A stretch of 64,000 nucleotides of DNA from an uncultured Candidatus Saccharibacteria bacterium (GCA_964407105.1 CAYOUG010000001.1:8059-72058), one strand, 5' to 3'. Counted from the stretch's first letter, positions 52,513 to 55,610 are shown. Notes: a model not told the origin generated them from the sequence alone. Program-made: numbers and translations.

Positions 52513-54735
52513 TTATTTTAATTTTTTTGTTTTTAATCGAAGTGAATTTGTAACTACTGATACACTGCTTCCCGCCATAGCAAGTCCCGCAAAAATCGGA
52601 TTGAGCACTATGCCCCATATTGGATAAAGTACACCAGCCGCAACAGGAATACCTATAACGTTATAAATAAATGCCCAAAAAAGATTTTGCTTTACTGTTC
52701 TCATCGTTGCTCGCGAGAGATCAAACGCTTGAGAAAGTTTGTTGATATCTCCATGAAGCAAAGTAATGCCGGCTGACTCAATTGCTATATCAGTACCCGT
52801 AGCCATTGCTATTCCAACATCAGCCTGCACCAAAGCTGGCGCATCATTTATTCCGTCTCCCGCCATCGCTACTTTTTTCCCTTCATCTTGAAGTTGTTTA
52901 ATTTTATTAGCTTTTTCAGCAGGCATTACTTCAGAAATAACGTTGTCGATGTTTGCTTGTTTTGCTATGTACTGCGCCGCTAAATGATTGTCACCAGTAA
53001 GCATTACAACCTTAATACCTCTTTTATGAAGTTTGGCAATCGCCTCTTTTGCTTCATTTTTTAAAGTATCAGAAAGTGCAACAAGTCCTATTTTTTTATC
53101 ATCAACCTCTACCACCACAACCGTTTTTCCTTGTTCTTGTAAGGCCGTCAATTTAATTTCTTTTTTGTCATTTTCATTTGGCTTATGCACGTAAACCAAC
53201 GCACCATCAACATTTGCTTTCACCCCCACGCCCTCAAGTGAAGAAAAATTTTCTGCTTTACTAAGAGAAAGTTTTTGTTCATCGGCTTTTAAAACAATAG
53301 CCTGAGCAAGTGGGTGTTCAGAAAGTTTTTCTACACTTGCAGTAAGTTGTAAAATTTGATTTTCATTCCATTTAGAATCAAGAACCACAATGTCTGTAAC
53401 TTCTGGTTTTCCTTTTGTTATAGTTCCTGTTTTATCAAGCACAATCGTATCCACCTTACTTAATTTTTCTAACGCTTCAGCGTTTTTAATAAGGATGCCA
53501 TACTCAGCGCCCTTACCAACGCCCACAATAATAGCTGTTGGTGTGGCAAGACCAAGCGCACACGGACAAGCAATCACCAAAATTCCTACGCACGACAAAA
53601 TACCATAAGATAGCGCCATAGAAAATCCTATCGTAGGAATTCCCACCGCAATCCACAAAACAAACGTAACCAGAGCAATTATTAAAACAACAGGTACAAA
53701 AATACTAGAAATTTTATCGGCGAGAGCCTGAATAGGCGCTTTTGAACCCTGAGCTTCTTCTACCATACGAATAATTTGTGAAAGCAGTGTGTCCTTACCT
53801 ATCTTTGTGGCGCCAAAAGTAAAGTGACCTTGTTTATTTATTGTGGCACCCACCACAAAATCTCCAATTTTTTTATCGACAGGAATCGGCTCTCCACTAA
53901 TCATAGATTCATCAACAGAAGAATGTCCTTCAATAATTTTGCCATCAACAGGAATTTTTGCCCCCGGTTTTACAATTACAGCATCTCCTTCATGAACATC
54001 GTTTATAGAAATCTCAACTTCTTTTCCATCACGAAAAACAAGCGCCGTCTTTGCTTGCAATCCCAATAATTTTTCAATAGCTTCGCCGGTGCGAAGTTTG
54101 GACCGTGCTTCAAGATATTTTCCAAGGGTTACAAAACCTATCACAACTATTGTTACATCAAAATATGTGTATTCTGGTAAACCAAGTGATTCTCTTATTT
54201 GGGGTAAAAGGACGACCGCAACGCTATATACGTACGCGGTGAGAGTACCTATGCCGATAAGTGTGTCCATGTTTGCAACACGATATAAAACAAATCTTTT
54301 AACCCCCCGCAAAAATGGCTGTCCTATCCAAAAAAGTACTATTGTGGCCAATATCATTCCAACTATATTAAAAAGCATCATTGATATTGGAAGGCTTGGA
54401 ATAAATGAAAATGTTTTTGCTGCTATATCCCAAAGCATTAAAACAAACACAACAAGAGCAATGGGAAAAACAAATTGCATCTTTACTTTCATTTTGGAAA
54501 GTTCTTTGTTTTTGTCCTCTTTTGGTTGATCAACAAATTTGTATCCAAGCTTTTCAATTTCTTTATTCATTTTTTCAACAGAAATTTTTTGTGGATCAAA
54601 ATTAATGCTCGCTTTTTCTGTAGCAAAATTAACATCTATTTTTTTCACCCCATCTAATCCTAAAACTGTTTGAGAAATTATGGCCGAACAACTTGCGCAA
54701 TGCATTCCCTCAATTTTTAAAGTCTGATTATTCAT
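52513..54735 (-). CDS. copA: copper-translocating P1B-type ATPase
   Basis: 740 aa; N-terminal HMA (GMHCASC); CPC in TM6; DKTGT; GDGINDAP. Confidence 0.9.
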
Positions 54736-54756
54736 ATAAAAAATGTATATGTCGAT

Positions 54757-55008
54757 TTATTTCCTCTTAAGTTTATAGACCTTAAGAATCTCTTCTTTTG
54801 CTTTCTCGGTTTGTCCTTTGGTAACCTGATTTAAAACACAACTACCCAAATGGTTTTCAAGAAGCAGATCTTCTACATTTGAAAGAGCTTGTTTTACAGC
54901 AGACGTTTGAGTAATAACATCAATACAATAAGTATTATTTTCAATCATTTTTTGAAGACCGCGCACCTGACCCTCAACAAGTTTTAATCGACGAATAATT
55001 TTTTTCAT
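54757..55008 (-). CDS. csoR: CsoR/RcnR-family metal-sensing transcriptional repressor
   Basis: 83 aa; RLKLVEGQVRGLQKMIENNTYCIDVITQTSAV...H...C. This is the W-X-Y-Z fingerprint of DUF156. Confidence 0.85.
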   Translation of the reverse strand: MKKIIRRLKLVEGQVRGLQKMIENNTYCIDVITQTSAVKQALSNVEDLLLENHLGSCVLNQVTKGQTEKAKEEILKVYKLKRK

Positions 55009-55020
55009 ACCAATATTCTA

Positions 55021-55043
55021 TACCCCCCAAGGGGTATGTGTCA
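55021..55043. promoter_or_regulatory. CsoR-type operator palindrome (ATACCCC-N-GGGGTAT) overlapping the csoR promoter
   Basis: ctataccccccaaggggtatgtg lies 13 nt upstream of the csoR start. A minus-strand TTGCAA-16-TAAATT promoter sits just upstream. Confidence 0.6.
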
Positions 55044-55064
55044 ATTTAGTATCATAAGAGAAAG

Positions 55065-55242
55065 TTGCAAAATTGGTGCTGCCGATCAGGGACTCTCGGC
55101 TACCGCCGCGGGTGCTTTTCGGTCTCGCATGCGAGTACGCACACTCGACAACGAAAAGCCTTTCGAGTCCCTGACGAAAGTGCCGCGGGGCACTTTCTAT
55201 CGCCAGCACTCCGCTTCGCTACGTGCTGCCGATCAGGGACTC
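55065..55242. repeat. 20-bp direct repeats (gtgctgccgatcagggactc) duplicating the 3' end of tRNA-Gln, flanking ~140 bp of hairpin-rich DNA (att-like scar)
   Basis: Identical 20-mers at 55065-55084 and 55223-55242. The second is the 3' end of the tRNA gene. The interval has inverted repeats (cagggactc/gagtccctg; gaaagtgcc/ggcactttc). Confidence 0.6.
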
Positions 55243-55296
55243 GAACCCCAATTAACCGCTCCAGAGGCGGTCGTCCTACCATTAGACGAATCGGCA
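55226..55296 (-). tRNA. tRNA-Gln (anticodon CTG), U1-A72
   Basis: Reverse complement TGCCGATTCGTCTAATGGTAGGACGACCGCCTCTGGAGCGGTTAATTGGGGTTCGAGTCCCTGATCGGCAG. Anticodon loop CTCTGGA; a T-stem with two G-U pairs lowers confidence. Confidence 0.65.
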
Positions 55297-55344
55297 ATAA
55301 ACCTTACGATACTTTAAAAATAGCCTTTTTTCAAGCAAACAAAA

Positions 55345-55397: not shown

Positions 55398-55610
55398 TTA
55401 TCGGATGGTTGCACCACGCTCGTTCAGAACGAGCCGTCCGAAGTCATCAACGTAAGAACGTTTTTCTGGGTCATACCTCAATCCACGCGCCTCAGCCGCT
55501 TCAACGTTGCGAGGATGCTCTGGTCTCAAACTCGCACAAAAAACTGGTTGGGGTTTTGTTGCAGGTTTCTGTGTTGCTGACTTCGGATTCGGAGTCTTCT
55601 TCGTCGTCAT
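55398..55610 (-). CDS. hypothetical small basic protein (70 aa), GC-rich
   Basis: SD aaaggaaa 6 nt upstream of the ATG; followed by the terminator hairpin. About 55% GC. Confidence 0.45.
   Translation of the reverse strand: MTTKKTPNPKSATQKPATKPQPVFCASLRPEHPRNVEAAEARGLRYDPEKRSYVDDFGRLVLNERGATIR

Follow-up and report, generated by a model that had tools for sequence, protein, structure and literature searches.

On the minus strand of the window, as we call the whole stretch of 64,000 nucleotides analyzed here, the locus comprises in order pyrG, a 70-aa ORF, a hairpin, a tRNA-Gln promoter-like site, tRNA-Gln, an insert, a distal repeat of the tRNA end and the copper genes csoR-copA (Table 1). 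The repeat is an exact 20-mer, GTGCTGCCGATCAGGGACTC, which occurs in two copies in the 64 kb, while no match to it is expected in shuffled sequences, even when 3 mismatches are allowed. On the tRNA strand it reads GAGTCCCTGATCGGCAG followed by CAC, and comprises 17 nt of the tRNA, from about position 57 in the T-loop up to the discriminator, and 3 nt of flank. The spacing from copy to copy is 147 bp and the insert has 127 bp (55096-55222). The first-pass annotation of this DNA had named the tRNA-Gln(CTG) correctly, as ARAGORN and Rfam (55.8 bits) confirm, and had reported a duplicated 20-mer, which is indeed exact. However, it placed the first copy at 55065-55084, 11 bp off, gave 158 bp for the spacing and about 140 bp for the insert, and divided the repeat into 16 tRNA and 4 flanking nt, where the split is 17 and 3. 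It had called the insert hairpin-rich, which understates the case, since the strand with the tRNA and the insert folds at -113.6 kcal/mol (z = -6.2 against shuffles), and it had missed an inverted copy of the tRNA end inside the insert. This inverted copy is present as two pieces split by a perfect hairpin, one complementary at 13 of 13 nt (55162-55174) and the other at 10 of 11 nt (55199-55209). The insert has a G+C content of 61%, against about 38% for the genome. No part of it was found to recur elsewhere in the 64-kb window, and duplicated ends were not detected among the other 10 tRNAs of the window.

Both repeat copies and the insert are present in an independent Logan assembly of SRR12487045 (contig L001; loci and contigs are given here by L numbers), so the arrangement is not an assembly artefact. 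The Logan contigs L001 (at its start) and L002 (at its end) of the same accession both break in the anticodon arm of tRNA-Gln (window ~55253-55270), with about 16 nt uncovered between them. This break may come from a k-mer in common with a second tRNA-Gln gene or from a population variant at the anticodon.

Table 1. Features of the tRNA-Gln locus and of its downstream context, in window coordinates
Feature	Position	Strand	Evidence
tRNA-Gln promoter-like site, TTGAAA-17-TATCGT	55306-55334	-	Consensus scan, consensus match only
tRNA-Gln(CTG), intact; the proximal repeat is its 3' end	55225-55296	-	ARAGORN; Rfam 55.8 bits
Proximal "sense" copy S, T-loop position ~57 to discriminator plus CAC, GAGTCCCTGATCGGCAGCAC; attL-like	55223-55242	-	Exact repeat
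Short linker or mini-hairpin, GTAGCGAAGCGGA, at the place of the terminator hairpin H0 of other subfamilies	55210-55222	-	Sequence, block comparison
"Anti-acceptor" arm, GTGCTGGCGAT, complementary at 10/11 positions to the 3' strand of the acceptor and CAC	55199-55209	-	Folds; helix 1 of model R1
hp1, perfect 9-bp hairpin, GAAAGTGCC-CCGC-GGCACTTTC, splitting the anti arm	55176-55197	-	Inverted repeat
"Anti-T" arm, GTCAGGGACTCGAA, complementary to the T-loop, the 3' strand of the T-stem and the beginning of the acceptor strand	55162-55175	-	Inverted repeats, 13/13 and 10/10; helix 3
hp2, long hairpin, GCTTTTCG...CGAAAAGC, with inner hairpin	55114-55159	-	Folds
Junction ACCCG and hp3 (CGGC-GGTA-GCCG)	55097-55113	-	Folds
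Distal "sense" copy S, displaced original tRNA end (putative), attR-like; pairs with the anti arms and so closes the module	55076-55095	-	Exact repeat, folds
csoR promoter-like site, TTGACA-18-TAGAAT, enclosing a CsoR-operator-like palindrome (55020-55037)	55015-55044	-	Consensus scan, 11/12 matches
csoR (55008-54757) and copA (54735-52513), downstream context outside the module	52513-55008	-	ORFs; Pfam Trns_repr_metal, HMA/E1-E2_ATPase

The genes around the insert place it at the edge of a variable region. The best named relatives of PyrG, whose gene lies 400 bp upstream, belong to Parcubacteria/Paceibacteria-type Patescibacteria, and the tRNA-Gln sequence of the window is identical to that of several MAGs of this type. 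Synteny with the closest relatives (prfB-ftsE-ftsX-pyrG) ends at tRNA-Gln, the content downstream differs between genomes, and by these gene orders tRNA-Gln is the boundary of a variable region in the clade. The 70-aa ORF between pyrG and tRNA-Gln (55398-55610, minus strand) is lysine/proline-rich and has no Pfam match. At the same place in relatives (L054:5855-6350 and L057:5700-5990) there is a putative fragment of a LAGLIDADG-type homing endonuclease (...YLRGLYEAEGSF...), recognized by eye. On the other side, the first-pass annotation had located the insert within the csoR-copA upstream region, next to the promoter, but the best promoter match lies about 30 bp downstream of the distal repeat and is intact; the palindrome within it is ATACCCCCCAAGGGGTAT. 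Both the predicted promoter and the predicted operator of the copper operon are thus uninterrupted by the module. No terminator is predicted between tRNA-Gln and csoR, therefore the only plausible effect on the copper operon would be read-through from the tRNA promoter.

The insert has relatives in other genomes. A scan for the tRNA end TTCGAGTCCCTGATCGGCAGCA, with one genome per species, yielded 30 loci, 28 of them tRNA-Gln loci of Patescibacteria. At least one homologous block follows the tRNA in 11 of these 28, block remnants lie upstream of it in 2, a block is absent in 11 and the remaining 4 loci are too short to judge; that is, 11 of the 24 informative Patescibacteria genomes with this tRNA end have a block after tRNA-Gln. 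One further block follows a tRNA-Lys and has Lys-matched arms, and a metagenome scan demanding both arm types added 6 loci. These public scans relied on exact motif matches and give the range of the family, and its absence elsewhere, only roughly; all related sequences are MAGs or metagenome contigs. The order of the parts is constant in every block: tRNA end, H0 hairpin, anti-acceptor arm, hp1, anti-T arm, hp2, junction, hp3 and second copy of the tRNA end. The anti-T arm ends in CTCGAA, hp2 is long, the junction is GUAC or ACCC, and the loop of hp3 contains GUA. In at least 11 of 17 cases, the H0 between the tRNA and the block resembles a terminator and has a T-run. When each block is folded alone, the two arms close into a stem bearing three hairpins. 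There are at least three scaffold subfamilies, and the window belongs to A1 together with L015 and L030 (66-70% identity); the motif ACCCGCGRCGGTAGYCGAGA of the junction and hp3 is common to the window, L015 and the Lys-armed block of L008. The flanking direct repeats measure 15-27 nt across loci. The blocks are always on the tRNA strand, directly downstream, and no copy was seen outside tRNA ends or arrays, the window holding one.

Rfam 15 has no match for the block: with E limits of 10 for the window and 0.1 for five other loci, only the tRNA was recovered. Known ribozyme and RNA families were rejected on this ground, and hammerhead-like motifs, compared by eye, misfit. In BLAST searches against phages and plasmids the tRNA part alone matches, and IMG/VR, searched with tRNA-end, arm and scaffold motifs, gave just chance matches, giant-virus tRNAs and one plain tRNA-Gln. 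The literature on CPR tRNA introns, T-loop insertions and serine recombinases at tRNAs contained no description of the block. The window insert is an intact member of a family of gene-less, strongly structured modules located at tRNA 3' ends of Patescibacteria (CPR), a family that is apparently undescribed.

Other structured sequences were found near some of these tRNAs. Upstream of tRNA-Gln in L017 (53-500) and L018 (reverse strand, about 250 nt upstream) there are decayed extra copies of tRNA-Gln before the intact gene, with an hp1-hp2-hp3 scaffold inside the T-loop, between GGGG and GAGTCCC, and with other hairpin inserts in the D-loop or the anticodon arm. A second trailer, also conserved and about 150 nt long (...CATGTGAGA-hairpin...ACGAGTCATGGGCTCGAA...), lies directly after tRNA-Gln or the block in L003, L010, L017, L021, L049 and L007. 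It terminates in a T-arm-like hairpin (TTGGTTCGAATCCAA) and a T-run, and has no Rfam match; in L049, a reverse transcriptase ORF of a DGR terminates inside it. After tRNA-Gln in L017 (700-790), L029 and L043 there is a third conserved trailer motif, CTATTCCGAAAATTGCATACCTGCTGAGAGCAGTATCC, with a terminator behind it.

The structure of the block was evaluated with a covariance model, R1, built from 16 blocks with an explicit structure. On the tRNA strand, all 16 training blocks are recovered by R1, with scores of 77-147 bits; matches on the reverse strand reach at most 28 bits. The window, which is itself in the training set, has a sole match in the 64 kb, at 55076-55209 (89.1 bits, E = 7e-23). 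New members recovered by the model were L023b and the Lys block of L008. In the alignment made by the model, 86% of the cells form standard pairs and 30 of 39 pairs have changes on both sides; in an unfitted MAFFT alignment the values are 80% and 24 of 39. As a control, sliding the partners lowered the paired cells to about 40% and about 43%, respectively, and in neither alignment did any of 500 shuffles reach the observed values. All six helices contribute to the covariation. In hp1 (helix 2), 6 of 7 pairs have both-side changes, with compensatory changes in L015, L030 and L016; the same holds for 6 of 6 pairs in hp2 (helix 4, 96% of cells paired) and 4 of 4 in hp3 (helix 6). The structure of the block is under selection, although the complementarity of the arms could in part come from both arms copying one tRNA and not from selection for pairing. 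The helices are nearly pure Watson-Crick: on each strand, G.U accounts for about 2 of every 48 pairs. The two strands also fold almost equally well, with a slight advantage of the sense over the antisense strand (p = 0.04). RNAalifold applied to the raw MAFFT alignment gave 14 pairs only, with helices out of register, and was replaced by the explicit structure and the covariance model.

Empty and filled sites were found in related genomes, where the first-pass annotation had advised looking for them. L010 (empty) and L049 (filled) have a near-identical downstream trailer, and L049 has an additional 176 bp bounded by TCCCTGATCGGCAGC. In L049, the discriminator is followed by the ancestral A in the distal copy but by T in the proximal one, showing that the working tRNA 3' end of this locus is element-derived. 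By analogy with L049, the proximal copy S of the window is probably element-derived as well. L003 and L021 form a second empty and filled pair, with the same downstream flank and a 22-nt repeat. In addition, the exact tRNA-Gln of the window occurs without a block in five genomes (L005, L009, L014, L020 and L027), and the closest PyrG relatives also have no block. A relative with the window's own right flank (csoR) was not found, and no excised or circular form of the module was observed. The earlier proposal of an insertion at the tRNA 3' end, marked by the duplication and comparable with attL/attR, is upheld by these sites. The opposite picture, with no empty sites and a unique, unstructured insert, was contradicted on every count. 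Insertion and the existence of a block family are well supported.

Two other interpretations of the repeat were discarded. The minimum-energy fold pairs the 5' strand of the tRNA with the distal copy, as would a T-loop intron, but distal copies decay in L008, L012, L016 and L030 while the proximal copies stay intact, and therefore the proximal copy is the working tRNA end. The CCA after the distal copy, which resembled an original CCA end encoded in the DNA, is out of register (...GGCA-G73 then CAC in both copies; GCACCA) and is absent in other loci, so that it is coincidental.

The arms of the blocks are modular. In L008, the A1 scaffold (TCGAAAGACTTTTCG...CGAAAAGTACCCGCGACGGTAGTCGAGA) lies after tRNA-Lys(CTT), with arms that match the end of this tRNA and a direct repeat of 27 nt. 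This locus (L008:1-260), with tRNA-Lys(CTT), a terminator and then the A1-type block, is the only non-Gln example seen; L008 also has a different, A3-type block after tRNA-Gln(TTG). Both arms of L006a differ from the local tRNA yet are complementary to each other, and in blocks preceded only by a degenerate motif, S', the anti arm still has a perfect distal partner. S' is a tRNA-Gln-end-like 27-mer (GTTCYAAYRTCRTMCCA.A..GYCAG), always found in tRNA orientation, which closes single-gene units downstream of tRNA-Gln in L005, L006, L007, L014, L020, L024, L026 and L050; L014 has three copies in about 1 kb and L050 has two. The order in L050 is block, isochorismatase gene, S', hairpin, block, peptidase S51 gene and S'. 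Two blocks are in tandem in L023, and in L006 and L024 genes for ClpP-like, HD-domain, zinc-finger-like and membrane proteins lie between two blocks. In their sequence organization, the S'-closed units look like integron arrays. No second block, S or S' motif that could bound a copper-operon cargo unit was found anywhere in the window. On the reverse strand of L050 (800-870) there is a truncated block start, formed by the anti-acceptor arm and half of hp1 and broken at the hp1 loop by a second hairpin-plus-block, which suggests a nested insertion into hp1.

No gene was found within the 127-bp insert. The first-pass annotation had advised looking for integrase genes near other copies, but a Pfam search of 102 neighboring ORFs revealed no recombinase recurrent near the blocks and no Phage_integrase family among the recurrent neighbors. 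Nor was a homolog of a large serine recombinase detected in the window. In relatives, a large serine recombinase of 530-550 aa with Resolvase, Recombinase and Zn_ribbon_recom domains abuts tRNA-Gln or tRNA-Asn; it is the only recombinase family seen at these tRNA ends, and the last 4-10 codons of its ORF are the antisense of the tRNA-Gln or tRNA-Asn 3' end. The islands headed by this recombinase have junctions after GGCAGCAC and harbor MerR-like/HTH_17, DUF5659, primase and restriction-modification genes. Judged by such content, they look similar to tycheposons, which are tRNA-anchored islands built by successive integrations (bioRxiv 10.1101/2020.12.28.424599). Within the approximately 10 kb visible per island, no block or long tRNA-end repeat was found in those located at the same tRNA ends; a role of the large serine recombinase as the mobilizing enzyme of the block is thus unsupported, its islands being without block and repeat. 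An autonomous parent element carrying the block was not found. More than 3000 homologs of large serine recombinases were detected in CPR at E <= 1e-30, such as L057:6040-7665 (minus strand) and others in L018, L019, L043 and L061-L066; the gene of L057/L058 is uncalled in the source annotation. Just downstream of the tRNA-Gln block of L049 there is a DGR core with an RVT_1 reverse transcriptase and a bAvd accessory protein (L049:2381-3780). This reverse transcriptase was also considered and set aside, being present in one lineage only and unrelated to the block.

The reading that we prefer, with a probability of roughly 0.55, is that of a non-autonomous module which was inserted by site-specific recombination in the segment from T-loop to acceptor and acts at the DNA level by means of a folded site. 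The module would be complete and gene-less, with 147 bp (the 127-bp insert and one 20-bp repeat). It would have entered tRNA-Gln by conservative site-specific recombination, with a crossover between the T-loop and just past the discriminator; its own copy of the segment would complete the working tRNA, and the original end would be displaced 147 bp downstream. The arms, one a reverse complement and the other a direct copy of the tRNA end, would pair and close the three-hairpin scaffold. Once folded, they would re-create the duplex of the tRNA-end attachment site, which may be the recombination site of the module. After insertion, this duplex may offer a second usable landing site, where gene cassettes could accumulate. 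The active form is probably folded single-stranded DNA, comparable to integron attC or CTX-phage attP, and the recombinase would be supplied in trans. Action at the DNA level is favored because the helices are near-pure Watson-Crick on both strands, H0 is terminator-like in most blocks and there is no room for a promoter. Co-transcription of the window block with the tRNA is possible, since the A1 subfamily is without the terminator hairpin. In an empty-site junction, the tRNA ...GGGGTTCGAGTCCCTGATCGGCAGCAC would be directly followed by CAATTTTGCAAC, and a circle or excision junction would read ...GCGGCGGTAGCCGA-GAGTCCCTGATCGGCAGCAC-GTAGCGAAGCGG.

The strong covariation and the conserved loops are also compatible with a structured non-coding RNA, which would be a tRNA-like minihelix (acceptor-like on T-like stem, one side arm and an expanded T-loop) obtained from the tRNA-Gln transcript or by read-through, acting for example as a processing or enzyme-recruiting mimic and spread by duplication from the tRNA gene. 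Such an RNA would agree with the constant position of the block on the tRNA strand and directly downstream, with its G+C content well above that of the genome, with the slightly better fold of the sense strand and with the lack of a terminator between tRNA and block in the A1 subfamily of the window. Within the anti arm there are the tRNA's own 5' acceptor strand, TGCCGAT, and a CAGGG that resembles a T-stem and leads into CUCGAA, which resembles a T-loop. However, these arms are an exact reverse complement of the tRNA 3' half, T-loop included, and not a copy of its 5' parts, and the two wobble pairs of the tRNA are Watson-Crick pairs in them. Most blocks have a terminator-like hairpin and T-run before them and no promoter space, G.U pairs are nearly absent, the structure of the other strand is equally good, and no Rfam family was matched. 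The presence or absence of the block with identical tRNAs, the tandem copies and the cargo arrays suit a mobile element better, and we consider an RNA function unlikely, though deserving of more weight than the two explanations that follow.

The first-pass annotation had favored a relic, that is, a phage or island integrated at tRNA-Gln of which deletions left about 127 bp, now functionless, between attL and attR. The direct repeat from T-loop to tRNA end is the classic one, large serine recombinase islands integrate at this tRNA end in relatives, and there are well-known cases of tRNA-anchored islands that have partial tRNAs (bioRxiv 10.1101/2020.12.28.424599). Random deletion remnants, however, are not expected to have the same architecture with compensatory changes in many genomes, the recombinase islands examined are without the block and long repeat, and the scaffold also occurs with tRNA-Lys arms. 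The insert is a complete, conserved six-helix module, and the relic, quite improbable in our estimate, is largely refuted by covariation and recurrence. The idea of a miniature element targeting the tRNA end, also raised in the first pass, came closest to the data, although not in the strict sense of a classical MITE mobilized by a transposase, with terminal inverted repeats resembling the tRNA end and a target-site duplication. The block is indeed small and gene-less, its inverted arms have about 20 nt, direct repeats flank it, and empty and filled sites exist. But the flanking repeat is the arm sequence itself, and its length differs from locus to locus (15-27 nt), whereas that of a target-site duplication would be fixed; copies were found at tRNA ends only, one in 64 kb and none dispersed, and there is no recurrent transposase nearby. 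We regard a classical MITE as very improbable.

If a recombinase reads the folded site of the non-autonomous module, this would be a new, structure-specified and potentially re-targetable attachment site. Patescibacteria have tiny genomes with few recognized mobile elements, and their gain and shuffling of accessory genes are poorly understood. A widespread gene-less module alternating with cargo genes points to a specific, so far undescribed route of gene acquisition. The larger proposal, of a tRNA-anchored and integron-like cassette system in Patescibacteria, with a folded-DNA module, re-programmable Gln/Lys arms, single-strand recombination in trans and single-gene arrays, is speculative and we give it little credence at present. 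Patescibacteria are thought to depend on DNA uptake, and single-strand recombination would suit them. For annotation, the blocks explain "partial tRNA" repeats and GC-rich, hairpin-dense spacers by CPR tRNA genes.

The module shares features with several known systems. As in tRNA-targeting elements and CIMEs, it lies at a tRNA 3' end, has direct repeats of partial tRNA and supplies a new tRNA 3' end; successive insertions stack distally, the region varies between relatives, and islands with a large serine recombinase and a primase occur at the same tRNAs. It differs from tRNA-targeting elements in being gene-less (127 bp), without an integrase, and in its conserved six-helix structure, inside which the attachment site is repeated in inverted form. 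Unlike for a CIME, the approximately 10 kb visible per island revealed no autonomous element that has its att sites and internal sequence in common with the module. MITEs are likewise small and non-coding, with inverted arms, flanking direct repeats and presence/absence polymorphism, whereas the module is strictly site-specific and undispersed, with variable repeat length and a complex conserved internal structure. The tRNA-like RNA domains, such as that of tmRNA and minihelix mimics, have in common with it an acceptor-like stem that continues into a T-like stem, and CUCGAA as a T-loop-like start, but the module has perfectly complementary arms, two hairpins that expand the loop and no in-register CCA.

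The comparison with attC and CTX-type sites draws on established knowledge of those systems, whose defining cores and enzymes were not found here. The block resembles integron attC in its size range (about 60-140 nt), in its variable sequence with compensatory structure and in the imperfect inverted arms that close a variable center. As with integron cassettes, sites alternate with single, promoter-less-looking cargo genes (L050 and L014) and the recombinase is outside the cassette. Unlike attC, there is no GTTRRRY / RYYYAAC core (the arm has GTTCGAG, not GTTRRRY) and no intI was found; unlike in the integron, the arms copy about 20 nt of a tRNA end, and a tRNA gene, not attI, anchors the array. 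The attP of CTX phage (IMEX, XerCD at dif) similarly has two inverted copies of the target about 70-100 nt apart, foldable into a duplex mimic of the target, in the order hybrid site, body, inverted copy, loop and hybrid site, with a recombinase in trans. However, the target of the module is a tRNA end and not dif, no phage genome is attached and there is no link to Xer. By analogy, the locus as a whole comes nearest to a tycheposon-like tRNA-anchored island, and the block itself to an integron attC or a folded attP of the CTX type.
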